A stretch of 64,000 nucleotides of DNA from Kiritimatiellia bacterium (GTDB taxonomy: Bacteria > Verrucomicrobiota > Kiritimatiellia > RFP12 > UBA1067). The stretch is taken from positions 9,832 to 73,831 of the forward strand of contig JAZLMG010000057.1 of assembly GCA_045598585.1 (NCBI GenBank). The letters are read 5' to 3'. Within the stretch, counting starts at the first letter, position 1, and each line of letters starts with the position of its first letter. The translations under genes were made by a program, and so were the position numbers. This document shows, piece by piece, positions 35,687 through 58,419 of the stretch. Under the pieces are notes generated by a model. That model did no database searches. It was not told where the DNA came from and was given only the letters and a program-made list of their open reading frames with translations.

Positions 35687-36459
35687 TTCGAGAGCTCTTT
35701 AATGCGCTTGCCTTCTTTCAAAAGCGCCTTTAAAGTTTCGGAGTCGGACGAATCGATAGCGCGCTTAAAAGTTGTAAGTCGCTCGATCAAACGCCCGAGG
35801 ACAATCGAGAGATCGTCCTTATTGGAGAGAAAAAGATCGTTCCAAATATCGGCTTCGACAACGGCGACTCGCGTCATGTCCTGGAAAGAACCTGCGGAAA
35901 AACCCATGTGACCGGTCGCAATCGGATCTTGGACATAAGCGGACGAAACGACGTGAGCAAGCTGGCTCGTATAAGCGATCATCTCGTCGTGATGTTGAGG
36001 CGTCGTGACGACCACGCGAGCAAAACCGATCGAGAGCATAAGCGATTTAAGTTCCTCGACTTTCTCCGAAGGCGTCCACTCGTAAGGCGTCAAAATCATC
36101 GACGCGCCCTTGTAAAGCTTCGCATCGCTCATCGCATAGCCGCAGCGCTCTTTACCGGCCATCGGGTGACCGCCGATATAAGTCCAGTTAGCGCGCTTAG
36201 CCGTTTCTTCAAGCTCAGAGAGAACGACGCGCTTAACGCCCGCAACATCGGTAATCAACGCGCCGGGCTTGAAGTCCGCAGCATGTTCCCTAATCCAAGG
36301 CGCGACCATTAAAGGCGGAAGCGCGACGATGATAAGATCGCACGAGCTGATTAAAGAAGCGTCGGCACCTTTAAGATTAAGCGCCCGGTCGCCTCTTTCG
36401 ATAAAGGCCTTTTCGAAGGAGCCGCCGATAAGTCCGAGACCACGAATGCCGACGATCAT
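35683..36459 (-). CDS. tyrA: Prephenate dehydrogenase
   Basis: Start at MIVGIRGLGLIGGSF (M32 of the ORF); ATGA overlap with the aroC stop. Rossmann GxGxxG and the TyrA fold. Confidence 0.75.
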   Translation of the reverse strand: MIVGIRGLGLIGGSFEKAFIERGDRALNLKGADASLISSCDLIIVALPPLMVAPWIREHAADFKPGALITDVAGVKRVVLSELEETAKRANWTYIGGHPMAGKERCGYAMSDAKLYKGASMILTPYEWTPSEKVEELKSLMLSIGFARVVVTTPQHHDEMIAYTSQLAHVVSSAYVQDPIATGHMGFSAGSFQDMTRVAVVEADIWNDLFLSNKDDLSIVLGRLIERLTTFKRAIDSSDSETLKALLKEGKRIKELSK

Positions 36460-37442
36460 ATCGCCTGTTCCTTCCGGCGTTCGAGATAGGCATCGAGAAT
36501 CGCAACCGCTGCCGCCGCTTCGACGACAGGAACGGCGCGCAAAGCGATACAAGGATCGTGACGACCTTTGATAGAGAGCGTCGCGTCTTCCATTTTCGTT
36601 AAATCGACGGAAGCTTGGTCTTTGAAAATCGAGGGAGTGGGCTTAATGGCAACACGGAAAACAATCGGCGCGCCCGTCGTAATGCCGCCCAAGATTCCAC
36701 CCGCATTGTTGGTAACGGGCTTAACCTTCCCGTCAACCATACGATAAGGATCGTTATTCTCCGAGCCCTTCATCGAGGCAACCTTGAAGCCCGCACCGAA
36801 CTCGAGACCTTTGACGGCGGGAATGCCGAAAACGACTTGGGCAATGCGGTTTTCCATGCCGAGGAACATGGGGTTTCCAAGTCCCGCAGGGCAGCCGACA
36901 ACCTCACATTCGATAAGCCCACCGACGGAATCACCTTCGGCTTTCGCCTTAAGAATCGTTTCCTTATCAACATTCGCTTTCGCCGAAATCGTTATCCCGA
37001 GGCGCTTCAAAAGCTGAATCGCTATACCGCCCACGATGCACAAAGGCGCGGTCAACCGACCCGAGAAATGACCGCCGCCCGCACGATCTTGAAAGCCCCC
37101 GAATTTAACTTCGGCGGGATAATCGGCGTGGCCGGGACGCGGCAAAATCGCGAGATTGCCGTAGTCCTGAGAACGGGTATTCGTGTTGCGGATAATCGCG
37201 GCGATTGGAGAGCCGGTAGTAAAGCCATTCTTTAGCCCACTCAAGAATTCGGGCTGATCAGGTTCTTTACGGGAAGTCGAAGTCTCGTCTCGCCCGGGAG
37301 CGCGGCGCTCCAAGAACGCTTGAAGTTCGTCGAGGTCGATTCTTGAGCCCGCAGGGAGGCCTTCGATATTGACCCCGATTGCTGCGGAGTGAGACTCGCC
37401 GAAAATCGAGAAGCGAAGATTCTGACCGAAAGAGCTGCTCAT
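36456..37442 (-). CDS. aroC: Chorismate synthase
   Basis: Start at MSSSFGQNLRFSIFGESHS (M12 of the ORF); ATGA overlap with the aroA stop. Conserved AroC motifs throughout. Confidence 0.85.
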   Translation of the reverse strand: MSSSFGQNLRFSIFGESHSAAIGVNIEGLPAGSRIDLDELQAFLERRAPGRDETSTSRKEPDQPEFLSGLKNGFTTGSPIAAIIRNTNTRSQDYGNLAILPRPGHADYPAEVKFGGFQDRAGGGHFSGRLTAPLCIVGGIAIQLLKRLGITISAKANVDKETILKAKAEGDSVGGLIECEVVGCPAGLGNPMFLGMENRIAQVVFGIPAVKGLEFGAGFKVASMKGSENNDPYRMVDGKVKPVTNNAGGILGGITTGAPIVFRVAIKPTPSIFKDQASVDLTKMEDATLSIKGRHDPCIALRAVPVVEAAAAVAILDAYLERRKEQAI

Positions 37443-38491
37443 CGAATTACCTCCAAACTGTCGAAATCCTTCCAAAAGCCGGGATAGGACTTGTTGACGA
37501 CTTGATCATCATCGACAATCACGGGTCCAGTCGAACCGGTAGCCAAAACCGCCGCGCTCATCGCGATTCGATGATCGTTGCATGTCATGACTTTGCCGCC
37601 CGAAAGCGAGGTCTTACCTCGAACAATCAGCGTATCGCCCTCGATTCGCGCGTCGCCTCCTACCGCGTTAACCATCGCGCAAGTCGACTCGAGGCGGTCG
37701 CTTTCTTTGATCCTGAGACGTGCACAATTGACAAAACGCGTTTCACCGGGCGTGAAAGCGGCATGTGCGGCAAGAGCGGGAATCAGATCGGGAACAGGAC
37801 CCGCATCAACTTCGCGTTCGTTCAAGAGCTTAAAAACGGCTCGATCGCCCTGAGAAGACGAATAGTCTACACCTTCGATATTAACGCCCATCGCAAGGAA
37901 GAACGCGGCCTGAGACCAGTCGCCTTCAACCTCGCGGCCGCCTTCGATGGAATACTTTTGGCCACCCTTGATCTTCCAACCAAGTCTCGTGCGCTCGACT
38001 TCGATATGAGCGGCCTTTAGCATATTCTCGGTTAAAGTCACGTAAGCAGCCGACTGAAGGCCGCCCTCAATCTGAATTTCGGAGTCCCAATCGGCCATAG
38101 GAAGCGCCATCAAAAGCCCGGAAACGAACTGGGAAGAGACATTCCCCGGGATGATGTACAAGCTCTTCTTCTCGAAAGGCATCGTCGGACGCTCGGCTAG
38201 TCGCCCTTCACACTTAAACGCACCTTTCGCGCCGAGGACTCCCGCTATCGGAGTCAAGAAACGTAAAGTCGAGCCCGACTCGCCACACGGCCAAACGCTC
38301 TCGCCTAAACGCATCGCTTCCAGACACGCGTAAGTAGCAGTCGTATCTTTCGAAGGCCCGTAAATTTTCGGCTGAGGGACACCGCTCAAAAAGGCCGCGA
38401 TGATTTCACGATGAGCAACCGACTTCGAAGACGGCACCCTAATCGTGCCGCGGCGCTTACCGGGAAGAATGATTCGCTCGTTAGCGGCCAT
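37439..38491 (-). CDS. aroA: 3-phosphoshikimate 1-carboxyvinyltransferase (EPSP synthase), unusually short (350 aa)
   Basis: VPSSKSVAHR (LPGSKS-type), NVSSQF, DHRIAM and ESDRL motifs. About 80 aa shorter than typical AroA. Confidence 0.8.
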   Translation of the reverse strand: MAANERIILPGKRRGTIRVPSSKSVAHREIIAAFLSGVPQPKIYGPSKDTTATYACLEAMRLGESVWPCGESGSTLRFLTPIAGVLGAKGAFKCEGRLAERPTMPFEKKSLYIIPGNVSSQFVSGLLMALPMADWDSEIQIEGGLQSAAYVTLTENMLKAAHIEVERTRLGWKIKGGQKYSIEGGREVEGDWSQAAFFLAMGVNIEGVDYSSSQGDRAVFKLLNEREVDAGPVPDLIPALAAHAAFTPGETRFVNCARLRIKESDRLESTCAMVNAVGGDARIEGDTLIVRGKTSLSGGKVMTCNDHRIAMSAAVLATGSTGPVIVDDDQVVNKSYPGFWKDFDSLEVIR

Positions 38492-39536
38492 TGTCGATCA
38501 TCTCCTCGACTTTTTCAAGCGGAGTCTTTTGAGTTACACATTTGCCGATTTCAATAGGAAGAACGAAATCGATCGAGCCGGCGGCAACCTTCTTGTCTCC
38601 CATAATCGCATCGGCCATAGCCCCCGTAAAGAGGAGCGACGTCGGATCATAGCCCATCGCAGCAACGAGCGCGACGATACGCTCGCAATCATTCTCGGAA
38701 AGAAGACCGAGTTGGCGGGAAGAGCGCGCGGCAAAAGCGATGCCGGTCGAAATCGCATGACCGTGAGTCACATTGAAGTCGGAAAGCTTTTCGATCGCAT
38801 GACCGAACGTGTGACCGAGATTAAGAAGCTTTCTGACGCCCCCCTCCTTCTCGTCGATATTCACAATATCGCGCTTCATGCCGATGCACTTGGAAATCTC
38901 GACTTCGCCGATTTTGCGCTTCGGATAGCTTTCGAGAACCGAGAAGAGATCCTTATCGCCGAGAATCGCGTACTTAAGAACTTCGCCCATACCATCCTTA
39001 ATCCAAATATCGGGCAGAGTCTCAAGATAACTTACATCGCAGAAAACGGCGCGGGGCTGATGGAACGCGCCGACCAAGTTCTTACCCGAAGGAAGATCGA
39101 CACCCGTCTTACCTCCGACGGACGAATCGACCATCGCGAGAAGCGAAGTCGGAATCTGGATAAAGTCGATCCCGCGCATGAAAGTCGCCGCGGCAAAACC
39201 GGTCAAGTCCCCGGTAACGCCGCCCCCCAGCGCAACGAGCACATCCGTGCGAGCGAGGCGTTTTTCGGCGAGGAAATTGATGAGCGACGAATAGGTCGCA
39301 AGCGTCTTCGATTTTTCTCCCGCTTCGAAAGTGAAAAGCGAAGTTTCAAGATTAACGCCACGAAGCTCGCTTAAGACCTTTTCCGCGTGGAGAGGCGCGA
39401 CATTAGAGTCGCTGACTAAGACCACCTTACGAGCTTTCGTCAAGGTAGTCTTTATGAACATCGCAGCCTTATTCGCCGCGCCATAATCGACGACGACTTC
39501 GTAAGGGACTCCGGTTTCGACTTTAATGCGCGTCAT
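38481..39536 (-). CDS. aroB: 3-dehydroquinate synthase
   Basis: GGGVTGDLTGFAA and metal-binding HGH motifs of the DHQS fold. Confidence 0.9.
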   Translation of the reverse strand: MTRIKVETGVPYEVVVDYGAANKAAMFIKTTLTKARKVVLVSDSNVAPLHAEKVLSELRGVNLETSLFTFEAGEKSKTLATYSSLINFLAEKRLARTDVLVALGGGVTGDLTGFAAATFMRGIDFIQIPTSLLAMVDSSVGGKTGVDLPSGKNLVGAFHQPRAVFCDVSYLETLPDIWIKDGMGEVLKYAILGDKDLFSVLESYPKRKIGEVEISKCIGMKRDIVNIDEKEGGVRKLLNLGHTFGHAIEKLSDFNVTHGHAISTGIAFAARSSRQLGLLSENDCERIVALVAAMGYDPTSLLFTGAMADAIMGDKKVAAGSIDFVLPIEIGKCVTQKTPLEKVEEMIDNGR

Positions 39537-39545
39537 ATTTTTCAG

Positions 39546-40688
39546 TTATCTTTCAGCGTAAGCGCCGAGGAAGGTGAAGTGTTCGACGTTCGGATCGTTC
39601 GTGAAGCCCGCGATAAGCTTGATTACGCGCTTATCGGTCGGGAGCGCCTCAAAATCAAAGATGAAGCGGAATTCGAAGTCGGACCCGGGAACAGGACGCG
39701 ACTCGAGTTTCGTGAGGTTTACTCCGACCGCGGCAAACTTTACGAGAACATCGGACAAAGCACCGGGGCGATGCGACAAGCTCATCATCATCGAGAACTT
39801 ATGAGCATCGGGATAAATCTCGGCCTTCTTGGAAATGCAGATAAAGCGAGTATAGTTATTCTCGATATCGGCGATATCTTCGGCAATCACTTCAAGACCG
39901 TAGAGTTCAGCGCATTCACGCGAGCAAATGACCGCGGCATCCTTACGACCCGAGTGAGCGAGGGCTTTCGCGGCAGCCGCCGTATTGGTCGAGGGAGTCG
40001 CGCGGATTCCCGCATGATCGCGGAGGAAGTTCGAACACTGGGCAAGCGCATGCGGGTGAGACATGATTTCCTTCACATCCGCGAGCTTGACGCCGGGAGC
40101 GGCGAGAAGGACATGGCGAATACGAAGCTTCAAGGCCTTCACGATACGGAAGTTGTGCTTCGCCATCAAATCGTAGACGGCGGTTACACTGCCCGCAGTC
40201 GAATTCTCGACGGGAAGAACGCCATAATCGCACATCCCCTTTTCGACCGCAGCAAAAACGTCATCAAAGTTCTTGAAGTAGAAAATCGTCGGGAAGTTGA
40301 CGATACGGCAAGCGGCCTGCTGAGCATAAGCGCCTTCGACACCCGTACAAGCAACGACCGCCTTCGAAGGAAAGCCGTTCTTACCGGCTTCAAGGGCGGC
40401 AGTCACCGAGGGCTCGAAACTATCGAGGGCGAGTTCGGAGCGCTGACGACCACGAGAAATCGCCATCATCGTCGTAAAGAGAAGACGAGCTTCGTTCTCA
40501 AGATCGTGGCCGACACGCGTCGCTACCTTCGAGAGAATCTCGCGTTCACGTGCGGGATCGGTAACGGGAGCGCCGGACTCTTTCTTCGCGGCGGCGACCT
40601 TCGAGGCCGCTTCCATGCGACGAACGAAGAGCTCGACCATTTGGGAGTCGATCTCGTCGATAGTCTTGCGGATATCGGAAAGTTCCAT
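39546..40688 (-). CDS. pheA: Bifunctional chorismate mutase / prephenate dehydratase
   Basis: N-terminal CM_2 helix bundle, central PDT domain (ESRP motif) and C-terminal ACT domain. Confidence 0.85.
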   Translation of the reverse strand: MELSDIRKTIDEIDSQMVELFVRRMEAASKVAAAKKESGAPVTDPAREREILSKVATRVGHDLENEARLLFTTMMAISRGRQRSELALDSFEPSVTAALEAGKNGFPSKAVVACTGVEGAYAQQAACRIVNFPTIFYFKNFDDVFAAVEKGMCDYGVLPVENSTAGSVTAVYDLMAKHNFRIVKALKLRIRHVLLAAPGVKLADVKEIMSHPHALAQCSNFLRDHAGIRATPSTNTAAAAKALAHSGRKDAAVICSRECAELYGLEVIAEDIADIENNYTRFICISKKAEIYPDAHKFSMMMSLSHRPGALSDVLVKFAAVGVNLTKLESRPVPGSDFEFRFIFDFEALPTDKRVIKLIAGFTNDPNVEHFTFLGAYAER

Positions 40689-40704
40689 TTCTCTTTTTCG
40701 CTCC

Positions 40705-41718
40705 TTACTTACCCTGCCAAGCGTGAGGACGAATCGCCATGACGCGCTTCATCGTATCATCGAAGACTTCGGGAGTCTGGGACTGAACACCATCGCAAAG
40801 CGCGTGAGGCGGATCGTTGTGGACTTCGATGATAAGCGCATCGGCGCCCATCGCAGTCGCACCCATCGCGCAAGGTTCGACGAGGTGAGCGTAACCGGTC
40901 GAATGCGAAGGATCGATGACGATGGGGAGGTGAGAAAGACGCTTCAAAACGGGGATAACCGTCAAGTCAATCGTGTTGCGGGTAGCCGTTTCGAACGTAC
41001 GAATGCCGCGCTCGCAAAGCATGACGTTCGGATTACCGGAGGCCATGATGTATTCGGCGCTCATGAGGAGTTCCTGCAAGGTCGCCGACATGCCGCGTTT
41101 AAGAAGGATCGGCTTCTTGGTCATCGCGCCGACTTCCTTCAAAAGATCGAAGTTCTGCATATTGCGAGCACCGATCTGGATAACGTCGACATCGTTGAAC
41201 AAGGGAAGGTGCTCGATCGCCATAAGCTCCGTAACGATCGGAAGCCCCGTTTCCTTCTTCGCTTCAAGGAGGATATCAAGGCCCTGCTTGCCGAGACCCT
41301 GGAAAGAATAGGGCGAAGTGCGCGGCTTGAAGGCGCCACCACGAAGCATCGTCGCACCCGAGGCCTTAACCGACTTCGCGATACCGATCATCTGGTCAAT
41401 CGATTCGACCGAGCAAGGACCCGCGATAACCTGGAAATTACCTCCGCCGATCTTGACGCCGGAGCAATCGATAACGGAATCCATCGGGTGGAACTTGCGG
41501 TTCGCGGCCTTGTAGGGCTCCTGAATTCGCTGAACGCGCTCGACGACGCTAAGCGCCTGCACGAGGCCGATATCCATCTTCGCGACATCGCCGACGCAAC
41601 CGATAACCGTTTCACGTTCACCCGCGCTCACATTCGGGGTGATATGACGGGCCTTGAGCCAAGAGAGGAGACTCTCGACCTGAGACTTTTCGGCATCCTT
41701 CTTAAGTATGATGATCAT
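40705..41718 (-). CDS. 3-deoxy-7-phosphoheptulonate (DAHP) synthase, type I-beta with N-terminal regulatory domain
   Basis: 337 aa. KDO8PS-like TIM barrel (GPCSVES, LLKRGMSAT) preceded by a ~70 aa ferredoxin-like N-terminal domain, as in Thermotoga-type DAHPS. Confidence 0.85.
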   Translation of the reverse strand: MIIILKKDAEKSQVESLLSWLKARHITPNVSAGERETVIGCVGDVAKMDIGLVQALSVVERVQRIQEPYKAANRKFHPMDSVIDCSGVKIGGGNFQVIAGPCSVESIDQMIGIAKSVKASGATMLRGGAFKPRTSPYSFQGLGKQGLDILLEAKKETGLPIVTELMAIEHLPLFNDVDVIQIGARNMQNFDLLKEVGAMTKKPILLKRGMSATLQELLMSAEYIMASGNPNVMLCERGIRTFETATRNTIDLTVIPVLKRLSHLPIVIDPSHSTGYAHLVEPCAMGATAMGADALIIEVHNDPPHALCDGVQSQTPEVFDDTMKRVMAIRPHAWQGK

Positions 41719-41729
41719 TCTTATTTTCC

Positions 41730-42854
41730 TTATCTATCTTTAAATACTCTTTCAACTCGATTTCCGAGCGAACAAATTATGTCGTAGGCATGAGTGCCCT
41801 TCAAGGCGGCCCAATCGTCTGGCGTGATCGAATCGGAGCCGCACTTTCCGAAACAAATGACTTCATCGCCCGCCTTGACGTTCTCGACCTCGGAAACATC
41901 GACCGTCGTATAGTCCATCGAGATTCGTCCGATGATCTTGCAACGCTTCCCGCCGATGAAGACATGACCACGATTGGTGAGCGCCAAAGGAAGCCCATCG
42001 GCATAGCCCGCCGAAATCGTCGCGACTTTCGTCTCTTTATTAAGACACCAAGTACGCCCATATCCGAGCGTCGTACCCGCAGGAAGCGTGCGGACTTGAG
42101 CGACGCGCGTCTTAAGCGTCAAAACCGGCGCTACCTTCAAAGCTCTACGGCCATTGGGATCGAAAGAGCCGTGAAGATTGATACCCGTACGCACCATATT
42201 GAACGGCGCTTTGAACGCTTCGGGGAAGTTGTTGATCGCATCAGAGGCGGCAATATGAAGCTTCTTGAACTCGAGCCCCTCCGCCTTAAGTTCGGCGACA
42301 AGCGACTTGAAGAACTTGATTTGCGACTTGGTGAACGGGTCTTTAGGATCGTAGGCCATCGGGCAATGCGAAAAGACGCCTTCAAGCTCGAGATTCGGAA
42401 GATTCTTCGCTTCGAGCGCTACACGCTTCAAATCTTTCGCTAAAATGCCGAGCCGCCCCATTCCGGAATCGACCTTAAGCTGAACTTTCGTGACCTTCTT
42501 CCACTTGAGCGAATACTTCGAAATGAGCGCGGCAGTTTCGAGGTCGGTAATCGGAAGAATAACCCCCTTCTTAACCATCTCCTCGATCTCATCAGGAAGA
42601 ATCGAAGAGAGGATTTGGATTTCGGCATCTTTCGGGAGAACCTTTCCGATCTCAAGCGCTTCAAAGGGCTCGGCTACGCCGAACTGACGCGCGCCCGCCT
42701 CGTAAAGCGCCTTCGCATAAGCGGCGACACCCAAGCCATACGCATTCGCCTTCAAAACGGCAAGCACCTTCAAAGGCGAGACATGGGAGGCGATCTTGTG
42801 ATAATTCTTCACAAGCGCTTCCAAATCGATCTCTACTTCTACGCGATGCTTCAT
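41730..42854 (-). CDS. alr: Alanine racemase
   Basis: Start at MKHRVEVEIDLEAL (M65 of the ORF; the longer ORF would overlap the TetR gene). PLP-lysine motif AVLKANAYGLG. Confidence 0.85.
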   Translation of the reverse strand: MKHRVEVEIDLEALVKNYHKIASHVSPLKVLAVLKANAYGLGVAAYAKALYEAGARQFGVAEPFEALEIGKVLPKDAEIQILSSILPDEIEEMVKKGVILPITDLETAALISKYSLKWKKVTKVQLKVDSGMGRLGILAKDLKRVALEAKNLPNLELEGVFSHCPMAYDPKDPFTKSQIKFFKSLVAELKAEGLEFKKLHIAASDAINNFPEAFKAPFNMVRTGINLHGSFDPNGRRALKVAPVLTLKTRVAQVRTLPAGTTLGYGRTWCLNKETKVATISAGYADGLPLALTNRGHVFIGGKRCKIIGRISMDYTTVDVSEVENVKAGDEVICFGKCGSDSITPDDWAALKGTHAYDIICSLGNRVERVFKDR

Positions 42855-42858
42855 TTTC

Positions 42859-43455
42859 TTAAATCTTAACGGCCTGTATCGCGCGGCGAAAACGGATCTT
42901 CGCGGCTTCCGGATCTTTCTCGACCCCGAGACGCATACGAAACGCGGCGGATTCCATAATCGAGTAAAGGACATCGGCCGTGTTGACCGCATCAAGCGAG
43001 GATTTGCATTCCCCGTTTTTGATCGCTTCGTCGATAAGTTCGGCAAAAGTGACGCGGAGTTTACCCGTAAACATCTCGATTCGCTCGGTCATATCGTGAC
43101 CCGAGTTCACCATCGCGAAGACATAATCGCAAACTGCCGCGAAAAACTCTTTTCGCTCATGGAAAGTCTCGGCAACAATCGTGCAAATCTTGTCGATTCG
43201 TTCGGTCGCAGGCGCGGGGCTATGCTTGATCTCACGAATTCGCTCCCCGAGGCCCTCGGTAAGCTCTTTAATCGCGGCATCGAAAATGTCGCGCTTCGTC
43301 GTGAAATAACGATAAAGAACCGTACGTGCAACGCCGGTAGCTTCGGCGATTTCACGGAACGAGACTTTCGAAAAGCCGATTTGAGCAAAGAGGCGCATCG
43401 CCTTCATGACGACCATGCGCTTGCGCTCGGAATGATCTATCGTGGTTTTGGCCAT
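42859..43455 (-). CDS. TetR/AcrR-family transcriptional regulator
   Basis: N-terminal TetR HTH (FSKVSFREIAEATGVARTVLYRYF). Confidence 0.8.
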   Translation of the reverse strand: MAKTTIDHSERKRMVVMKAMRLFAQIGFSKVSFREIAEATGVARTVLYRYFTTKRDIFDAAIKELTEGLGERIREIKHSPAPATERIDKICTIVAETFHERKEFFAAVCDYVFAMVNSGHDMTERIEMFTGKLRVTFAELIDEAIKNGECKSSLDAVNTADVLYSIMESAAFRMRLGVEKDPEAAKIRFRRAIQAVKI

Positions 43456-43456
43456 T

Positions 43457-43879
43457 TTATTTCACCAAATATTCGATAGCTTCCGAGTAAGAATTAAAGC
43501 CCTTACCCGAGAAAGTCTTTTCGGCGACCATGCCGACATAAGAAACGCGGCGGAATTCTTCGCGATTCTTCGGCTCGGTCAAATGAACTTCGATAACGCG
43601 CGCTTTAACGGCCTTGATCGCGTCAAGAATCGCAACGGAAGTGTGAGTATAGGCGGCGGCATTAAGAACGATAGCGTCGAAAACGCCGCGAGACTCTTGA
43701 ATCCAATCGACGAGGACGCCCTCGTGATTGGTCTGACGGCATTCGACCTCCGCTCCGACCTTGTCAGCCGTCTCTTTAAGAAACGCCTTAAGGTCGGCAT
43801 AGGTACCCTTGCCGTATAAGTCCGGCTCACGAAGCCCGAGAAGATTCAGGTTCGGTCCGTTCAGTACAAGAATTTTCAT
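43457..43879 (-). CDS. aroQ: Type II 3-dehydroquinate dehydratase
   Basis: MKILVLNGPNLNLLGLREPDLYG and the DHquinase II fold. AAGGAAG Shine-Dalgarno. Confidence 0.9.
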   Translation of the reverse strand: MKILVLNGPNLNLLGLREPDLYGKGTYADLKAFLKETADKVGAEVECRQTNHEGVLVDWIQESRGVFDAIVLNAAAYTHTSVAILDAIKAVKARVIEVHLTEPKNREEFRRVSYVGMVAEKTFSGKGFNSYSEAIEYLVK

Positions 43880-43901
43880 CTGTTATAACTTCCTTAACTT
43901 T

Positions 43902-43919
43902 GTATTATATCATATTTCC
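43902..43919 (-). promoter_or_regulatory. Conserved extended -10 promoter element, copy 3, for aroQ, overlapping the leuB stop codon
   Basis: Minus-strand GGAAATATGATATAATAC. The leuB codons GAA-ATA-TGA (E-I-stop) are part of the element. 22-nt leader to the aroQ ATG. Confidence 0.5.
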
Positions 43920-44962
43920 GCCGAGATTGCATTACCGATCTCACTTGTAGAAACATTTCCTCCCAAATCGGCAGTGCGCAAACCGCGCTCCAAAACACGC
44001 TGAACCGCACTCTCGATCGCCTCCGCTTCCTTGGAAAGCGAGAAGCTGTAGCGGAGCATCATCGCTACGGACAGTATCGTCGCAATCGGGTTCGCAATGC
44101 CCTTTCCGGCGATATCGGGAGCGGAGCCGTGAATCGGCTCGTACATCCCAAAGCCGTCGAGACGCAAGGACGCGGAAGGAAGCATGCCGATAGAACCCGT
44201 GATTTGCGAGGCCTCATCGGAGAGAATATCACCGAACATATTCTCGGTTAAGAGGACGTCGAACTTTTGCGGAGCACGCACTAGTTGCATCGCGGCATTG
44301 TCGACATACATATGCTCAAGCGAGACTGAAGGATAATCCAAGGCGACTTTATTAACGATTTCTCGCCATAAACGGCTAGTTTCGAGCACATTTGCTTTAT
44401 CGACGCTCGTCACCTTTTTGCCGCGCTTCATCGCCGCTTCGAACGCCATCTTGGCGATTCGTTCGATTTCGGGTATCGAGTAGGCCATGATGTCTGTTGC
44501 GCTCTGGCCATCCGCCGCACGCTTGTGTTCGCCGAAATAAACGCCGCCTGTAAGTTCGCGGACAACAAGGATGTCGAGACCTTCGCCGATAATCTCGCTC
44601 TTTAGGGGCGAGGCATCTTTTAAGGTCGGCCACACTGTTGCAGGGCGAAGATTGCAGAAAAGTCCGAGACCGGAGCGAAGTCCGAGGAGCGCCTTTTCGG
44701 GGCGCTTGGGACCGGGGAGCGCATCATATTTAGGTCCGCCGACAGCACCTAAAAGGACTGCATCGGCTTTTTTACAAGTCTCGAGCGTTTCCATCGGCAA
44801 ACACTCTCCCGCGGTATCGTAGGCCGCTCCGCCCACCAAGCGCTCTTCGATCACGAACTCATGACCGAACTTGGTTTCGACTTTCTTAAGAACTTTCAAG
44901 GCCTCGGAAACGATCTCGGGACCGATTCCATCGCCCGCAACTACCGCAATCGTCTTTTTCAT
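43910..44962 (-). CDS. leuB: 3-isopropylmalate dehydrogenase
   Basis: [17 protein letters not shown] and the isocitrate/IPMDH fold. Confidence 0.95.
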
Positions 44963-45450
44963 TTCTTAAGTCCTTTCATATAAGAAGCGAGACCTCCCGC
45001 TTTGATAAGATCCTGCATGAACGGAGGAAACGGCTCGGCCTCGAAAGTCGCACCGCTCGTCTTGTCGATGATCTTGCCCGTATCGAAATCGACTTCGACT
45101 TCATCTCCCGCCTTTATCGCTTCGGCCGCTTCAGGGCACTCGAGAATCGGAAGCGCGATATTAAGCGCGTTACGATAGAAGATGCGAGCGAAGGACGCGG
45201 CGATAACGCAGGCGATGCCGCAGGTCTTGATCGCGAGAGGCGCGTGTTCGCGCGAAGATCCGCAACCGAAGTTCTTTCCGGCAATCATGATTTCGCCTTC
45301 TTGCACTTTAGAAGCGAAAGAAGTATCGATATCTTCCATGCAATGCTTCGCCAATTCCTTCGCATCAGGTGTATTCAAATATCGTGCGGGAATGATGACG
45401 TCGGTGTCGACGTTGTCGCCGTATTTCCAGGTTTTTCCAAGTGCTTTCAT
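44959..45450 (-). CDS. leuD: 3-isopropylmalate dehydratase small subunit
   Basis: 163 aa LeuD swivel domain ([15 protein letters not shown]). ATGA overlap with leuB. Confidence 0.9.
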
Positions 45451-45493
45451 AATTAGTTTTGAAGTTAGAAGTTAAAGTGTAAAGTGATGGAGA

Positions 45494-46753
45494 TTAGTCT
45501 TGTGGAGCAACTATCTTACCCGCAAGGGCTGAAGCTGCCGCAACAGCGGGTGATGCAAGATAGATTTCAGATTCGACGTGGCCCATGCGACCGACGAAGT
45601 TACGATTGGTGGTAGTAACCGCTTTTTCTCCTTTCGCCAAGATTCCCATATAACCCCCTAAACAAGGCCCGCAAGTTGGAGTCGAAACAACGCACCCCGC
45701 TTCGGCGAAGATTTTAAGATACCCCTTCTCCATCGCCTCGAGCCAAATCTTTTGAGTGGCAGGAATAACGATGCAACGAACCGATTCGGGAACCTTCTTC
45801 CCCTTCATCACTTCCGCGGCAATCGCGAGATCGGAATTGCGCCCGTTGGTGCAGCTGCCGATGACGACCTGGTCGATCTTGATTTCGTCGATTTCGTCGA
45901 TCGTGTGCGTATTCTCGGGTAAATGCGGGAAAGCGACCGTCGGCTTTAAGCTCGCCAAATCGATTTCAATCGTCTCGCGATACTCGGCATTCGCATCTGC
46001 CGCGTAAACGACAGGTTCTTTCGCGCCATGCGCTTTCAAGTATTCACGGCACTTATCATCGACAGGGAAAATGCCGTTTTTCGCCCCGGCCTCAATCGCC
46101 ATATTGGCAATCGTGAAACGGTCGTCCATCGAAAGCGCAGCGACTCCATCGCCCGTAAACTCCAAGCTTTCGTATCGAGCGCCATCGACTCCGATCTTGC
46201 CGATCAAGTGAAGAATGACGTCCTTGCCGCCGACATATTTCTTCGGCGCGCCTTTAAGAACGACCTTGATTGCGGAAGGAACCTTGAACCACGTCATGCC
46301 AGTCGCCATTCCCGAAGCCATATCGGTCGAGCCGATGCCGGTCGAAAAGGCGCCGAGAGCACCATAAGTGCAGGTATGCGAATCGGCGCCGATCACGAGA
46401 TCGCCCGCAGTAACCAGACCCTTCTCGGGCAAGAGCGCATGCTCAACGCCGCAATCATGACCGACTTCAAAATAGTTCTTGATTTCGTGTGCGCGCGCGA
46501 ACTCGCGCATGCACTTACACTGCGTCGCTGCCTTGATGTCTTTATTCGGAGTGAAGTGATCGGGTACGAGCGCGATCTTTTCTTTATGAAAGACCGTCTC
46601 ACGACCGAACTTCGGAAATTCGCCGATAGCTACGGGAGTCGTGATATCGTTTCCGAGCACGAGGTCGAGTTTCGCCATAATGAGCTCGCCTGCATGTACT
46701 TCCGACTTTCCGGCATGCGCGGCGAGAATCTTTTGTGTCATTGTCATAGCCAT
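45494..46753 (-). CDS. leuC: 3-isopropylmalate dehydratase large subunit
   Basis: [13 protein letters not shown] and aconitase-family Fe-S ligands ([14 protein letters not shown]). Confidence 0.9.
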
Positions 46754-46765
46754 AAGTTTATCTCC

Positions 46766-48373
46766 TTATTTGTCGGTGTGACCGCCACCTAACATATCAC
46801 CTTCGAAAGAATGTTGGTAAGTCGACGCTGCTCCCGTCGAGAGTGCCGCCTTACTGCCAGCAAGCATATTGTTGACAGCGGAAAGCGCTGCAAGAATCGA
46901 GCCCTCGACAATGTCGGTCGAGACGCCTCTTCCTCGGTAAGTTCCCGTAGAATCGCTGATGATGACCTTAACTTCTCCAAGCGCGTCGCGATGTTCGGTA
47001 ACCGCCTGAATCTGATAGTCGTCCAAGCTGAAAGGATGTTTGATCAACTTTTCGATCGCGCGAATCGAAGCGAAGACGGGGCCTGTACCGATCGCGACTT
47101 CTTGGAACGTTTCCTCTCCAAGTCGCAAGGTAATCGAAGCGGTCGAGGTCATCTTGTTGCCGCTATTGACGACAAAGCTCTCGAGCTGATAGGACTTTTC
47201 GGGATCAAGCGCGGCAGAAATGCCCTTCGCTTCGACGAGTGCAACTAAATCGCGGTCGGAAATATCTTTTTTCAAATCCGCGAGACGCATGAACTCGGCA
47301 AAAAGCTGAGTGATTTTCTTCTCGCTCAAAGTCGTATATCCGAGCGCTTTAAGACGATCCTCAAAAGCGTGCTGGCCGGAGTGCTTGCCGAGCACGAGAT
47401 CCTGCTTCTTAGCACCTACTGATTCGGGAGTCATAATCTCATACGTCTCAGCGTTATTGAGTACGCCATGCTGATGAATCCCCGACTCATGCGCAAAAGC
47501 ATTCTTACCGACAATCGCCTTCGAAGGAAAGAGCTTAACACCGGTTATCGAAGAAAGAAGCCGCGCCGTCCGTCCGATTTCCTCTGTCTTGATATTATAG
47601 GAAAGATGATAGAAGTCTTTGCGGGTGCGAAGTCCCATCACGATTTCTTCCAACGCGGCATTACCGGCTCTTTCTCCGATACCGCAAATGGTGCATTCGA
47701 CCTGACGCGCTCCGGCCATCACGCCTGCGAGAGTATTCGCAACCGCGAGACCGAGATCATCATGAACATGCATCGAGATTGTCGCTTTGTCGATATTGGG
47801 GACTCTCGTCTTCACGTTTCGAACCATCGCCGCGATTTCTTCGGGAGTCGCATAGCCGACAGTATCAGGAAGATTGATGATTGTCGCGCCCGAATCAATC
47901 GCCGTTTCGACAGCTTTGGCAAGGAAGTCAGGATCGGTGCGTGAAGCGTCTTCGGCGGAGAACTCGATTTCAGGGCATTTGTTACGGGCGTATGCGACCA
48001 TCGACTTGATTTGCTCAAGCGCACGATCACGCGTCATTTTGAGCTTATACTGGAGATGCAAATCGCTCGTCGCGAGGAAGGTATGAATTCGCTTCTTGGC
48101 CGCGCTCTTGATCGCTTCGGCGGCTGCATCGATATCTTTTTCGAGCGCACGAGACAACGAACAAACCGTCGAGGCCTTGATCGCGTCCGCAATTTTCTTT
48201 ACGCTCTCGAAGTCGCCGGGCGAAGCTATGGCGAAACCCGCTTCAATGACATCGACCCCGAGCGCCTCAAGTTGCAAGGCCATTCGAAGCTTTTCTTCTT
48301 GAGTCATCGAATAACCAGGGGCTTGTTCACCGTCCCTTAAGGTCGTATCGAAGAACTTTACCGTTTCATTCAT
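46766..48373 (-). CDS. leuA: 2-isopropylmalate synthase
   Basis: FDTTLRDGEQAPG N-terminus, HMGL-like barrel and C-terminal LeuA dimerisation/regulatory domain. GGAGGG Shine-Dalgarno. Confidence 0.95.
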   Translation of the reverse strand: MNETVKFFDTTLRDGEQAPGYSMTQEEKLRMALQLEALGVDVIEAGFAIASPGDFESVKKIADAIKASTVCSLSRALEKDIDAAAEAIKSAAKKRIHTFLATSDLHLQYKLKMTRDRALEQIKSMVAYARNKCPEIEFSAEDASRTDPDFLAKAVETAIDSGATIINLPDTVGYATPEEIAAMVRNVKTRVPNIDKATISMHVHDDLGLAVANTLAGVMAGARQVECTICGIGERAGNAALEEIVMGLRTRKDFYHLSYNIKTEEIGRTARLLSSITGVKLFPSKAIVGKNAFAHESGIHQHGVLNNAETYEIMTPESVGAKKQDLVLGKHSGQHAFEDRLKALGYTTLSEKKITQLFAEFMRLADLKKDISDRDLVALVEAKGISAALDPEKSYQLESFVVNSGNKMTSTASITLRLGEETFQEVAIGTGPVFASIRAIEKLIKHPFSLDDYQIQAVTEHRDALGEVKVIISDSTGTYRGRGVSTDIVEGSILAALSAVNNMLAGSKAALSTGAASTYQHSFEGDMLGGGHTDK

Positions 48374-48407
48374 ATTTGACTTCCCTCCAGTATTGATAAA
48401 AGAAATC

Positions 48408-48434
48408 GGCCTCGCCTTTTTAAGGGGCGGGGCC
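48408..48434 (-). terminator. Candidate attenuator terminator in the leuA leader
   Basis: Minus-strand GGCCCCGCC, loop CCTTAAAAA, then GGCGAGGCC (9-bp GC stem with one mismatch), followed by GATTTCTTTTAT about 60 nt upstream of the leuA ATG. Confidence 0.55.
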
Positions 48435-48464
48435 GAATTTTAAGCGTTCTCTTTTTTGCTTCGC

Positions 48465-48533
48465 TTAAAGGCGTCCCGCCCCGCTCGTAAGGAGAAGGTT
48501 AAGGAGGCCAAGAAGAAGAAGCGAATTATTCAA
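48465..48533 (-). CDS. Candidate leucine-rich leader peptide (22 aa, TTG start) of a leu operon attenuator
   Basis: TTG AAT AAT TCG CTT CTT CTT CTT GGC CTC CTT AAC CTT CTC CTT ACG AGC GGG GCG GGA CGC CTT TAA encodes (M)NNSLLLLGLLNLLLTSGAGRL with 10 Leu codons. GAAGG Shine-Dalgarno 8 nt upstream. The last codons overlap the anti-terminator segment GGGGCGGG. Confidence 0.45.
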   Translation of the reverse strand: MNNSLLLLGLLNLLLTSGAGRL

Positions 48534-48554
48534 GCTAAACGCCTTCAGTAAAAA

Positions 48555-48965
48555 TTACCAACGGGATTCACGACGGGGACCACGATCGCCGAAATCACGA
48601 TCGCCACCGAAGCCACCACGATCACCACCGCGGAAACCACCACGGGGGCCACCGAAGCCACGACCACCGCCGAAGCCGCCACGACCACCGCGGAAACCAC
48701 CACGATCGCCACGCTCTTCACGGGGCTTGGGCTGCGACTCATTGACACGGACCGTACGGCCGTCAATTTCATGTCCGTTCAGCGCGTCAATCGCGGCCTG
48801 CGCCTGAGTGGCGTCGGGCATCGTGACGAAGCCGAATCCTTTGCTGCGACCGGTCATGCGATCGGTGACAACGCGAACGGCGGTAACTTCGCCGAAAGCG
48901 GCGAAAGCCGCCTTGAGACCATCGTCGGTCGTCGCGTAAGCGAGGTTACCAACATAGATTTCCAT
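48555..48965 (-). CDS. RRM-domain RNA-binding protein with Gly/Arg-rich (RGG) tail
   Basis: RNP-2 IYVGNL and RNP-1 KGFGFVTM, then GGFRGGRGGFGGGRGFGG repeats. Confidence 0.85.
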   Translation of the reverse strand: MEIYVGNLAYATTDDGLKAAFAAFGEVTAVRVVTDRMTGRSKGFGFVTMPDATQAQAAIDALNGHEIDGRTVRVNESQPKPREERGDRGGFRGGRGGFGGGRGFGGPRGGFRGGDRGGFGGDRDFGDRGPRRESRW

Positions 48966-49037
48966 CTGACTTTTCCTTCTGTTCTTTTCTGTTCTTTAGC
49001 ATCCGATAGACACTCGCCTACCATCAACTAATTGAAA

Positions 49038-55793: not shown

Positions 55794-56288
55794 TTATTTC
55801 GCTTCCTTTTTCGCTTTAACCTGAATCGCGAGCCCCTTCAAATCCTCAGGGCGCACAATAGTCACGCCGTTGGGATTCTCACATATAAGCTTGCCCGGTC
55901 CCTTAACAACTATTACAGCGTTTTTCCCTTCAACCGGACGAATCTTCTTAAGCGTAATGGTGTGGTTATCCGGAATAAGCGTAACTACACCATCAATCTC
56001 AACATACGCAAGGTGATAAGGATCTTCAACATACTGCGACCAATCCGCTGTTGCACCCAATGTAGTTCTTCCGGAGAATACAATCTTCGATTGCGCATAA
56101 CGAAGCTTAATGGCCTCTGATCCCGAAAGCTTCATGGAGACATTATAAAACATCCCCGTAGCCGTTCCGAAATTCGTAAGCTGAATCGCATCGTCATTAA
56201 GAACTCCGGTATACTCATGATAATGAGTAGAAGAATCTCCAGGCGTCGGATTGAGAGAAAGAGCCGCGGCTAGAAGTAAGGCGAACAT
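55794..56288 (-). CDS. Hypothetical secreted protein
   Basis: 164 aa with a signal-peptide-like N-terminus (MFALLLAAALSL). No family recognised. Start overlaps the dapA stop (TGATG). Confidence 0.5.
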   Translation of the reverse strand: MFALLLAAALSLNPTPGDSSTHYHEYTGVLNDDAIQLTNFGTATGMFYNVSMKLSGSEAIKLRYAQSKIVFSGRTTLGATADWSQYVEDPYHLAYVEIDGVVTLIPDNHTITLKKIRPVEGKNAVIVVKGPGKLICENPNGVTIVRPEDLKGLAIQVKAKKEAK

Positions 56289-57163
56289 CAGAGGAGTCCG
56301 AGGTCCTTAAGAGTTTTGCTCATAATCTCGAGATTCTTGTCCGTCGTCTCGCAGAGAGGAAGGCGGAAGACTCGCTCAATCTTACCCTGGAGGGCGAGTG
56401 CTTCCTTGACCATAACGGGGTTCGTATCGATGAAGAGATTATGGAACAAGGGATAGAGCTTCGCATGCGCTTTACCCGCGGCCTTGAAGTCGCCCGAAAG
56501 CGCCAAGCGAATCATATCGCTCATTTCCTTCGGGATGACGTTCGAAGCGACGGAAATGACGCCTTCCGCGCCGACCGAAATCATCGGAATCGCGAGAGAG
56601 TCGTCGCCCGAGAGGACCGTAAAGTCGGGGCACATGTTCTTGATCGCCGAGACGCGCTCGACCGAGCCCGCAGCTTCCTTGATCGCGATGACGTTTTCGT
56701 GCGCGGCAAGACGCTTCACGACATCGAGCGGAATTTCCTTCCCCGCGCGGCCGGGCACATTGTAAAGAACGACGGGTAGCCCCAAATCGGCAAGCGTCGC
56801 GAAGTGACGATAAAGTCCTTCGGCGTTCGGCTTGTTGTAGTAGGGCGTAACCTGCAAGCAAGCGTCCGAGCCGCCCATCGAAATCGCTGCCTTGGTGAGG
56901 TCGATAGCTTCCTGGGTCGAGTTGGCGCCCGTACCCGCGATGATTTTGACCTTGCCTTGAGCGAACTCGATCGTCTTTTCGATGACCTTGTGATGCTCAG
57001 CGTGATCGAGAGTCGGCGACTCGCCGGTCGTACCGACGGAACAAATACCTTCAACTCCGCCCGCGACCTGTTCTTCGACGAGCGCTTTGAGTTTACCGTA
57101 ATCGACACTCCCGTCCTTCGCGAACGGAGTGACTAAAGCTGTAATCGTGCCATTAAGTTTCAT
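56288..57163 (-). CDS. dapA: 4-hydroxy-tetrahydrodipicolinate synthase
   Basis: TALVTPF N-terminus, a GSVDY-type motif and the catalytic Lys region of DapA. Confidence 0.9.
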   Translation of the reverse strand: MKLNGTITALVTPFAKDGSVDYGKLKALVEEQVAGGVEGICSVGTTGESPTLDHAEHHKVIEKTIEFAQGKVKIIAGTGANSTQEAIDLTKAAISMGGSDACLQVTPYYNKPNAEGLYRHFATLADLGLPVVLYNVPGRAGKEIPLDVVKRLAAHENVIAIKEAAGSVERVSAIKNMCPDFTVLSGDDSLAIPMISVGAEGVISVASNVIPKEMSDMIRLALSGDFKAAGKAHAKLYPLFHNLFIDTNPVMVKEALALQGKIERVFRLPLCETTDKNLEIMSKTLKDLGLL

Positions 57164-57211: not shown

Positions 57212-57469
57212 TTAATACATCTTTTCAAAGGTGCCGCTATCGACTTTCTTCAGCGTATGAAAACCGGCTCTTTTGGCGCGATAATGCAAATCGGTTTTAG
57301 AATGAGTTAAACCCGGCGCCTGAATAACTCGATATATCGGCGCACCGCATTCAGGACAAGTTGTAAGTTTATCCTCGCTTAAGCGTTGGGTGATCTCAAA
57401 CCCATCGCGGCACTTCCTACAGGAAACGTTCTTTTCCTTTGCCTCATAGACATATAGCGGCATCTTCAA
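57212..57469 (-). CDS. FmdB-family zinc-ribbon protein
   Basis: 85 aa. YEAKEKNVSCRKC...CPECG, with two CxxC pairs. Confidence 0.7.
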   Translation of the reverse strand: MKMPLYVYEAKEKNVSCRKCRDGFEITQRLSEDKLTTCPECGAPIYRVIQAPGLTHSKTDLHYRAKRAGFHTLKKVDSGTFEKMY

Positions 57470-58419
57470 GCCCTCGGATGATTGCGTAAAAATTCATCTT
57501 TCAGTCGTTCGACCGAAACATGGGTGTAAATCTGAGTAGTGGACAGAGACGCATGTCCCAGCATTTCCTGTACGCTTCGCAAATCCGCGCCTGCATCAAG
57601 AAGATGCGTCGCGAAACTGTGACGAAGTTTGTGGGGCGTGACATCACCGGGAAGCCCCGCCTCATACAAATACCGCTTCATTTGGCGCTGAACAAGCCGA
57701 GAATAGATGCGCTTGAAGTCCTTGTCGCAAATGAATACCGGCGCATCATCGATTACCAGCTCTTCATCTTTACGCTCGAGAATCTTGCGCAGCGCACGCA
57801 ATGCGCGAACCGCCGGATCGCCGAAGATTACCAATCTCGTTTTCTCACCCTTGCCGATTACGAAGGCCGTTCCTTTTTGGAGATCGATATCACCCCAGTC
57901 CAAGGAAATTATCTCGCTTAAACGGCAACCGGTCGAATAAAGCGCCTCAAAGAGCGCCGTATCACGAAAGGCGACATGTTGTCTGATCGTTCCTTCCGCA
58001 AAATCTTTAAGTGGTTGCGCTAGAAATTTATCGATATCCGTCGAGGATAATACTCGAGGAAGCTTTTTCTCTTGCTTGGGAGGGCGCAAATAGGCACTGG
58101 GATCAGTGACGAGCACTCCGTTTCGGACCAAGTAACGCAAGAACGAACGAAGCGATGCCAATTTCCTATGTACGGTAGTTGCGCTCAAGCCATCCGCAAG
58201 GAAATTCATCAAATATCGACGAATATCGACATCGGTAATAGAAGCCCAATTGAACGGGGGCTTTTTCTCCGCTCCGAATTTGAAAGTGGCGAACTGACCG
58301 AGATCTTGGAGATAATTGACCCTGGTCAATTCGCTACTCCCTCTCTCGCCGACGAGATAAGACTCGAATCGTTGTACGACCGAATCCTCGAGAAGCGATT
58401 TATTCTGGTAGAGCGTCAT
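57466..58419 (-). CDS. xerC: Tyrosine recombinase XerC/XerD family
   Basis: N-terminal SAM-like domain and C-terminal catalytic R...HxxR...Y (HKLRHSFATHLL, TQIYTHV). Confidence 0.85.
   Translation of the reverse strand: MTLYQNKSLLEDSVVQRFESYLVGERGSSELTRVNYLQDLGQFATFKFGAEKKPPFNWASITDVDIRRYLMNFLADGLSATTVHRKLASLRSFLRYLVRNGVLVTDPSAYLRPPKQEKKLPRVLSSTDIDKFLAQPLKDFAEGTIRQHVAFRDTALFEALYSTGCRLSEIISLDWGDIDLQKGTAFVIGKGEKTRLVIFGDPAVRALRALRKILERKDEELVIDDAPVFICDKDFKRIYSRLVQRQMKRYLYEAGLPGDVTPHKLRHSFATHLLDAGADLRSVQEMLGHASLSTTQIYTHVSVERLKDEFLRNHPRA

Follow-up and report, generated by a model that had tools for sequence, protein, structure and literature searches.

A candidate leader-peptide attenuator upstream of leuABCD in a Kiritimatiellia bacterium

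Does the short gap ahead of the leucine operon of a gut Kiritimatiellia bacterium regulate the genes behind it, and if so, what does it sense? The gap is a spacer of 181 nucleotides (nt) at positions 48374-48554 (minus strand) of the window (the whole 64,000-nt stretch of contig JAZLMG010000057.1 that we analyzed), between the TAA of an RRM gene (48557-48555) and the ATG of leuA (48373). A first-pass annotation had proposed that it holds a leader peptide rich in leucine codons and an attenuator resembling the enterobacterial leuL. We find in it a leucine-rich leader open reading frame (ORF), an intrinsic terminator, and a G-rich segment that can pair with the terminator's 5′ arm, and the same arrangement stands in front of leuA in 15 diverged lineages; these parts, their folding energies, their geometry and their conservation were observed directly. 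We think it likely, from modeling of the alternative RNA folds and from the comparison with relatives, that the element is a ribosome-mediated transcription attenuator through which leuABCD transcription follows the availability of charged leucine transfer RNA (tRNA-Leu). Kiritimatiellia belong to Kiritimatiellota, in the Planctomycetes-Verrucomicrobia-Chlamydiae (PVC) group, a phylum of guts and sediments whose members are mostly uncultured and whose gene regulation is, to our knowledge, essentially uncharacterized.

Leader ORF and alternative RNA structures

The leader ORF begins with TTG, 8 nt downstream of a GAAGG motif resembling a Shine-Dalgarno (SD) sequence, and has leucine at 10 of its 22 codons, with a run of four CTT codons, all where the first-pass annotation had placed them (Table 1). 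Every leucine codon is CTT or CTC, and the four consecutive CTT are codons 5-8. The window has 405 ORFs of 18-40 amino acids over its six frames, and this one ranks first among them in both leucine count and leucine fraction (45%, against a mean of 8% for these small ORFs), and the binomial probability of its leucine count is 6e-6 against the 9.2% leucine background of the window's 42 long ORFs. A 96%-identical relative (locus L161) encodes the identical peptide with one synonymous change. The ORF in the +1 frame (MASLTFSLRAGRDAFKRSKKENA in the window) was rejected as the leader: it starts with TTG without an SD, varies in length from 13 to 50 amino acids, and reads through the terminator in relatives.

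An intrinsic terminator lies between the leader ORF and leuA (hairpin 48436-48406, followed by UUUCUUUU). Its core pairs GGCCCCGCC (48434-48426) with GGCGAGGCC (48416-48408), and two more pairs extend it to the full hairpin; the 27-nt core alone has -13.4 kcal/mol (z = -2.7). The hairpin begins 61 nt and ends 33 nt ahead of the leuA ATG, so that the earlier placement of the terminator about 60 nt before leuA holds for its 5′ end but not for its 3′ end. A simple terminator scan did not pick up this hairpin, which we attribute to its 9-nt loop and internal C.A mismatch, both outside the rules of the scan.

The G-rich segment 2 contains a core, GGGGCGGG, at 48482-48475 (codons 18-20), whose exact complement, CCCGCCCC, is found at 48431-48424 in the terminator 5′ arm, as had been proposed for a pairing over 8 G:C. 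Although these 8 pairs are real, the antiterminator is larger than was first described: they are joined by GCC:GGC and by an inner 8-bp hairpin (UUUAAGCG/CGCUUAAA) carrying the leader stop codon, which together give an interrupted 19-bp helix. This structure (48486-48421) has -29.6 kcal/mol (z = -3.9); of 200 dinucleotide shuffles, not one was equally stable. Paired as a duplex, segment 2 and the terminator 5′ arm reach -24.9 kcal/mol, against a mean of -16.3 for shuffled versions of segment 2 (p = 0.008), while other 42-nt stretches of the same 16 kb have a mean of -10.4, with a fraction of 0.0018 equally good; the whole 181-nt fold is mildly unusual (z = -1.86). The antiterminator consumes the terminator 5′ arm, and therefore the two exclude each other; folded as the two exclusive conformations suggested in the first-pass annotation, both are thermodynamically sound. 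A terminating ribosome would cover segment 2, which is 3-15 nt away from the stop codon on its 5′ side; the leucine codons are farther upstream, 24-54 nt before the stop.

These parts suggest the following mechanism. While RNA polymerase transcribes the leader, a ribosome would be translating its 22-codon ORF, and the tRNA-Leu sensed would be the reader of CUU and CUC. When leucine is scarce, the ribosome would stall on leucine codons 5-14 (48521-48492), in segment 1; segment 2 (GGGGCGGG...GCC), left free, could pair with segment 3 (GGC-CCCGCCCC) once the latter is made, and this pairing, together with the inner stop-codon hairpin, would form the -29.6 kcal/mol antiterminator, block the terminator and let polymerase enter leuA. 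When leucine is plentiful, the ribosome at the last codons or the UAA would cover segment 2 and open the inner hairpin, segment 3 would pair with segment 4, and transcription would stop at the U tract (48405-48398). If the leader is not translated, segment 1 would pair with segment 2, and the terminator would form again. What the model predicts is that translation and transcription are coupled, that transcripts do end at the U tract, and that the outcome depends on leucine.

We examined the switch by a mask scan, in which the leader was folded with 27 nt (-15 to +11 relative to the A site) forced single-stranded and the A site was stepped codon by codon. Terminator occupancy in the window leader was 0.00-0.02 with the A site at leucine codons 5-10, 0.23-0.57 at codons 11-13 and 0.01 at leucine codon 14; it rose to 0.99 from leucine codon 15 to glycine codon 20 and was 0.91-0.98 at codons 21-22 and the stop. 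In the free RNA without a ribosome it was 0.66, and there the combination of the 1:2 hairpin, the inner hairpin and the terminator (about -34 kcal/mol) is preferred to the antiterminator (-29.6), whereas with segment 1 masked the antiterminator beats the terminator plus inner hairpin (about -19). Geometrically, 48482-48475 is exactly the stretch hidden by a ribosome that has reached the stop codon. Because the mask calculations describe an equilibrium and real attenuation is kinetic, the switching step itself is something that we infer.

Table 1. Positions of the leader elements and of the genes on either side of them in the window.
Feature	Positions	Strand	Description
Leader ORF	48465..48533	-	TTG start at 48533, 22 codons, TAA at 48467-48465; peptide (M)NNSLLLLGLLNLLLTSGAGRL
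SD-like GAAGG	48542..48546	-	8 nt upstream of TTG; overlaps the window version of the 5′ box (GAAGGCGTTTAGC, 48546-48534)
Putative control codons	48489..48521	-	Nine Leu among codons 5-15: CTT x4, GGC, CTC, CTT, AAC, CTT, CTC, CTT
Segment 1	48492..48509	-	Pyrimidine-rich, GGCCUCCUUAACCUUCUC; pairs with segment 2 to give the predicted anti-antiterminator hairpin
Segment 2	48470..48486	-	G-rich, GAGCGGGGCGGGACGCC; leader codons 17-22
Inner hairpin	48439..48469	-	UUUAAGCG (48469-48462, holds the leader stop) / CGCUUAAA (48446-48439); -5.7 kcal/mol alone; stacks inside the antiterminator
Segment 3	48424..48436	-	UCGGCCCCGCCCC; terminator 5′ arm and also partner of segment 2
Terminator hairpin	48406..48436	-	UCGGCC-C-CGCC, loop CCUUAAAAA, GGCG-A-GGCCGA (from folding)
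U tract	48396..48405	-	UUUCUUUUAU; directly after the hairpin
leuA, coding	48373-46766	-	First gene under the proposed control; SD GGAGGG at 48388-48383
leuA with its own SD	46766..48388	-	Pfam HMGL-like (1e-96), LeuA_dimer, HCS_D2
leuC, leuD, leuB	43910..46753	-	leuC 46753-45494, leuD 45450-44959, leuB 44962-43910; Pfam Aconitase, Aconitase_C, Iso_dh
RRM_1 gene	48965-48555	-	Pfam RRM_1

Conservation upstream of leuA in relatives

We gathered leuA loci (numbered here with the prefix L) from the genome collection, from metagenomes and from contigs encoding twelve diverse LeuA homologs. The LeuA of the window is 99% identical to that on contig JAKSOZ010000021.1 of a Kiritimatiellia metagenome-assembled genome (MAG) from horse feces. 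The first-pass annotation had suggested looking in relatives for a conserved leucine-rich upstream ORF plus terminator before leuA, and this arrangement is indeed found directly upstream of leuA in 15 diverged lineages, whose LeuA proteins are 67-77% identical, in addition to relatives at 96-99%. The lineages are the window (with L001 and L161), L002/L010, L007/L008, L003, L004/L006/L013/L081 (the L004 group), L005, L009, L162, L164, L166, L168, L169, L172, L173 and L174. They share an ORF of 21-34 codons (starting with ATG, GTG or TTG) with 3-10 leucines, followed by a GC-rich hairpin and a U tract, and the U-rich tail is present in every relative. An SD-like motif precedes most of the relatives' leader starts (it is absent or weak in L168, L174 and L004), and an extended -10 promoter (e.g., TGATAAAAT or TGGTAGAAT) is found just upstream of the leader in most relatives. 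In relatives the upstream genes bear no relation to the RRM gene, and many of them point the other way; because they vary, the element belongs to leuA and not to the RRM gene, which we rejected as a partner of the element since it is located upstream only in the window, L001 and L161.

Leucine makes up 24% of all leader residues in the 15 lineages, against a genome average of 9.2%, and it is concentrated: in the ten codons located 21-48 nt before the stop it accounts for 43% of residues (65/150), with no other residue above 12%, and every one of the 15 lineages has between two and seven leucine codons in that interval. For example, the leader peptides contain eight leucines in L166 (MNFGFRLLGLLSLLLLGSGTGVFCQ) and L009 (MNSNFLCNGLLLLALTKRGARLLV), seven in L164 (MSTKFYLTNLLLGLTLSSAGRALVF), L003 (MNLMLSLTLALNLGLTVRGGVACA) and L168 (MKNQTSHTALLLGLLLLTRRNISAV), and three in L002 (MNAMFEFTRLFTLGLTVWGGISRT). 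In 14 of the 15 lineages the distance from the last leucine codon of the cluster to the stop is 21-30 nt, and in L173 it is 12 nt; segment 2 is found no more than about 27 nt ahead of the stop, except in L173 and L174, where it comes just after the stop (+2 to +13); and the terminator arm begins 29-47 nt past the leader stop. The geometry is thus conserved across lineages although the sequence is not. Similarly, segments 2 and 3 are complementary despite very different sequences (UCCGCGG/CCGCGGA in L168, UCUGCGG/CCGCAGA in L173). Hairpins analogous to 1:2 are predicted in L002, L003, L004 and L007, and L002, L004 and L007 have a hairpin of different sequence (UGAAC/GUUCA) at the position of the inner hairpin.

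The 2:3 complementarity exceeds what composition gives in shuffle tests at p ≤ 0.011 in the window, L002, L009, L162 and L169, and at p ≤ 0.05 in L166, L168 and L173, so it is significant in 8 of the 15 lineages; p is between 0.05 and 0.13 in L005, L172, L007, L164 and L003. Alignment of 20 leaders (MAFFT, RNAalifold) recovered the terminator alone as the consensus structure, shared by all 20, with double compensatory changes at 4 of its 11 pairs, and did not recover covariation of the antiterminator. The 2:3 pairing register slides between lineages, because both strands are rich in G-runs or C-runs; we judged the antiterminator by duplex energies in each lineage against shuffles and genomic background, and not by a hand-fitted alignment or covariance model. 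A cross-lineage duplex matrix was discarded as not diagnostic, since G-rich segments pair with any C-rich arm. In the mask scan, the same switch as in the window was seen in L161, L005, L162 and L166, and a restricted or partial one in L003, L009, L168 and L169. An nhmmer profile matched the aligned members with E = 1e-12 to 1e-42, scores that are not independent since the same members built the profile.

We also observed a conserved box, ACGCG(C/G)CGTTTT (ACGCGCCGTTTT), at the start of the leader transcripts; the window version (GAAGGCGTTTAGC, 48534-48546) overlaps the leader SD, and in L002-L013, L164 and L168 the box lies just downstream of the -10 boxes. In the L004 group it can form a helix with the terminator base (-18.6 kcal/mol, p = 0.004), as it can in L169 (p = 0.012), and not in the window; we rejected this pairing as a general feature, since it is significant only there.

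The attenuator is not universal in the clade, because several loci lack a leader of this type: L082 and L084 (LeuA 71% identical; in L084, leuA follows the end of an ACT-domain-like gene), and L170, L171 and L175, in which leuA is inside an operon ilvN-ilvC-leuA-(second HMGL-like gene). Two members of the L004 group come from contigs titled Clostridium sp. CAG:138 (L006) and Limosilactobacillus gorillae (L013), in which leuA is of the Kiritimatiellia type and the leader is almost the same as in L004 and L081; these contigs are probably mis-binned or mislabeled in the source assemblies.

Alternative explanations and gene neighborhood

Several observations weigh against a leucine attenuator in the window or in part of its relatives. 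For the window leader itself, the start codon is TTG, the leucine codons used (CTT, 35%, and CTC, 34%) are the commonest of the genome and not rare ones, and the 1:2 hairpin (-15.3 kcal/mol, z = -1.2) is plausible and no better than shuffles. The promoter scan identified no promoter of its own for this leader, the sole promoter-like site nearby being at chance level with its -10 inside the ORF, and the ORF starts only 21 nt past the RRM stop with no terminator between. Among the relatives, L002, L007, L008, the L004 group and L162 have kept the ORF and the terminator with only three to four leucines, which is not an enrichment; the few-leucine lineages may have enough in three well-placed codons, or may alternatively reflect drift, and the trpL leader functions with two control codons. 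In the L004 group (p = 0.50) and L174 (p = 0.38) the 2:3 complementarity does not reach significance. In the full-length equilibrium fold, the very stable terminators of L004, L007, L164, L172, L173 and L174 form at any ribosome position, and L002 frees its terminator only with the ribosome at codons 9-10 (mask scan); for all of these a classical switch would need a kinetic argument. The 5′ box has no role in the classical attenuation model. The +1 frame is also leucine-rich (65 leucines, versus 100 in frame), and the pyrimidine-rich strand may have been selected in part for pairing with the G strand and not for coding. In addition, the effects of mutating the leucine codons of an actinobacterial leuA leader (the LEU element of Streptomyces coelicolor) were not those expected under classical attenuation (PMC1262725), and codon runs alone are therefore no proof of mechanism.

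Some of these observations would fit a real RNA switch whose sensor is a protein, a small ligand or translation per se, with the leucine codons a by-product of the pyrimidine-rich pairing strand, much as has been proposed for the actinobacterial LEU element. The few leucine codons of five lineages, the leucine-rich +1 frame, the 5′ box and the S. coelicolor precedent all speak for such a sensor, as does the conservation of CCTTGGCCTTACGG at the nucleotide level, third codon positions included, in many relatives. We nevertheless regard it as unlikely. In every lineage a frame is open from a start codon to a stop at segment 2 and reads the pyrimidine run as leucine; most of the starts have an SD-like motif, and neither the start nor the stop is consistent in the other frames. 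The interval in which leucine makes up 43% is precisely the one where stalling would leave segment 2 free, the conserved columns are mostly in the paired segments, the leucine run and the U tract, with no obvious unpaired ligand pocket (judged overall and not column by column), and there is no match to an Rfam family.

Control might instead be mainly translational, with the hairpin mainly a structural or stability element: the U tract and its 3′ flank (GAUUUCUUUU) can pair with the leuA SD (GGAGGGAAGUC; 48378-48407) and could gate ribosome access. This pairing appears in the minimum-energy fold of the whole spacer and also when folded alone (-8.0 kcal/mol, z = -2.4), and a similar one is predicted in L002 and L161. 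However, a U-rich tail will pair with nearly any purine-rich SD, the energy is small, and the pairing is inconsistent across relatives, whereas the hairpin and U tract have all the sequence features of an intrinsic terminator and are the best conserved part of the element. We therefore consider mainly translational control quite improbable, and such pairing would be at most an added layer. Hardly credible is the reading in which nothing here is regulatory, the hairpin being the terminator of the RRM gene and the ORF having arisen by chance in a spacer rich in pyrimidines. The RRM gene does stop 21 nt ahead of the ORF in the window, L001 and L161, the interval holds no other terminator, and a promoter-like site with a TG-extended -10 is found upstream of that gene (49069-49040, minus strand). 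But the same ORF and terminator stand before leuA where the upstream gene is unrelated or divergent and a promoter lies directly ahead, and chance does not account for the leucine enrichment, the antiterminator or the geometry; these comparative data already contradict it, and the nhmmer result argues against the relatives' leaders being unrelated sequences.

A leucine attenuator thus remains our preferred reading, which leaves room for a change of input in some lineages. Several lineages without leucine enrichment (three leucines) keep the ORF, the geometry, the terminator and the 5′ box (ACGCGCCGUUUU), and the L004 group has also lost the 2:3 complementarity and has the helix between the 5′ box and the terminator base. 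For these reasons there is some small chance that part of the clade has been rewired to another input, such as the initiation or overall rate of translation, or a factor binding to the 5′ box. If so, the clade would offer a natural series from a codon-specific to a codon-independent attenuator.

As for the neighborhood, Pfam assigns the genes in order to an RRM_1 protein and then LeuA, LeuC, LeuD and LeuB, and leuC, leuD and leuB are the remainder of the operon downstream of the attenuator. The RRM_1-domain protein has 136 amino acids with an RGG/GGF-rich tail, and its stop is 21 nt ahead of the leader start. Transcripts of this gene probably run into the attenuator and end at the hairpin when it forms; the hairpin may double as the RRM-gene terminator in the window lineage (the window, L001 and L161), the only one with the RRM gene in that place. 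Nearly all genes of the window are on the minus strand with very short gaps. Aromatic-pathway genes are found near the leu operon (34529-44962, minus strand): aroQ (43457-43879) directly follows leuB, and a chorismate synthase (36456-37475) and a shikimate dehydrogenase/shikimate kinase fusion (34529-35686) are encoded on the same strand. A search of the window for other attenuators found no further leader-like gap, the genes being closely packed. The 302-nt gap ahead of dapA (56288-57163) is occupied by an 83-amino-acid ORF (57212-57463, minus strand), between dapA and an integrase-family gene (57466-58419); with its two CxxC pairs (MPLYVYEAKEKNVSCRKCRDGFEITQRLSEDKLTTCPECGAP...), it looks like a small zinc-ribbon protein.

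Comparison with known systems

We searched Rfam permissively (E ≤ 10) with 48000-49000, at gathering thresholds with the whole window, and with 13 relatives; only the T-box positive controls and one tRNA matched. No tRNA and no Rfam family was found in the whole window, where nothing reached a gathering score. At E ≤ 10 the leucine leader family (Leu_leader, RF00512) was not listed for 48000-49000, and the best leader-type scores are noise (Phe_leader, 18 bits, E = 4, gathering score 55; Thr_leader, 15 bits, E = 6.9). Similarly, ten leader peptides matched no family in Pfam or NCBIfam at E ≤ 10.

A leucine T-box (RF00230) resembles the proposed attenuator in that the terminator before leuA is read through at low charged tRNA-Leu; it differs in sensing uncharged tRNA directly, in a leader of about 220 nt without an ORF. 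No T-box match was found in the window or the 13 relatives, while the controls L011 and L085 score 106 bits. T-box leaders (GGTGGTACCGCG) were observed at L011, L012, L014 and L085 before Firmicutes-like leuA genes (LeuA 52-57% identity); different sensors therefore stand in front of closely related leuA genes.

The first-pass annotation had called such an attenuator unusual outside proteobacteria. It is less so than stated, since cases in Actinobacteria and Firmicutes have been reported or predicted (PMC1262725, PMC2965389, PMC5794164), although the phylum is new. Leader-peptide attenuation was long held to be confined to Proteobacteria and Actinobacteria and was later found in Firmicutes (PMC2965389). 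The ilv-leu operon of Staphylococcus aureus is controlled by a leucine-rich attenuator peptide together with CodY (PMC5794164). The logic is the same there and in the window, outside Proteobacteria in both, but the sequences are unrelated with no Rfam match, and the combined ilv-leu operon contrasts with leuABCD alone. The actinobacterial LEU element is a leucine-codon leader upstream of leuA without a terminator; it forms a pseudoknot in whose base stem the leucine run is paired to the leuA SD, and it was considered unlikely to work by classical attenuation (PMC1262725). Unlike it, the window element has an intrinsic terminator and an antiterminator, and its minimum-energy fold pairs the leucine run with segment 2 and not with the leuA SD, a pseudoknot not having been searched for explicitly.

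In the PVC group (Kiritimatiell-, Verrucomicrobia, Akkermansia, Planctomycetes) we found no report of a leader-peptide attenuator in the full-text literature, a search that did not cover the broad survey of Lopatovskaya et al. (2010). The element would thus extend classical leader-peptide attenuation to Kiritimatiellota, where no earlier report was found; the concept of attenuation is unchanged by this, and the finding is not conceptually surprising. For annotation, a leader ORF and a premature terminator can be marked in these MAGs, and the ratio of leader reads to leuA reads could serve as a marker of leucine limitation in gut metatranscriptomes. Among annotated leaders of other phyla, the leu leader of Lactococcus is represented by Rfam family RF01743.

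The closest proteobacterial LeuA proteins (50-55% identity) are alphaproteobacterial. Leucine-rich ORFs were observed about 120-210 nt upstream of leuA at L016, L054, L079, L080, L119, L150 and other alphaproteobacterial loci, followed by hairpins of the type CCCCUGA...UAGGGG; these are presumably proteobacterial leuA attenuators. They share with the window a short leucine-rich ORF and GC-rich alternative hairpins, and differ in peptides that end ...GRLSRP, ...LRLRCP or ...LLLICP, in other RNA segments, and in a distance of 120-160 nt to leuA. The nhmmer profile of the Kiritimatiellia leaders matched no alphaproteobacterial leader among 175 loci.

The comparison with leuL made in the first-pass annotation holds for the logic and fails for descent. 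Like leuL (RF00512), the window has a leader ORF with a leucine run, a predicted four-segment logic and an intrinsic terminator before leuA in a leuABCD operon. The leuL of E. coli encodes 28 residues with four consecutive leucines and uses the rare CUA, whereas the window peptide has 22 residues with 10 leucines in three clusters, starts with TTG, and uses the commonest leucine codons of its genome, CUU and CUC; its antiterminator also encloses a hairpin carrying the stop codon. The two have no homology in sequence or structure. Because there is no match to Rfam, Pfam, NCBIfam or the fetched alphaproteobacterial leuA leaders, the same four-segment logic was probably invented independently, and such an origin would support the view that attenuators of this kind arise repeatedly. 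In mechanism, then, the element is apparently a classical leucine attenuator; in descent, to judge from its sequence, it appears to be an independent, previously undescribed family and not a homolog of leuL.

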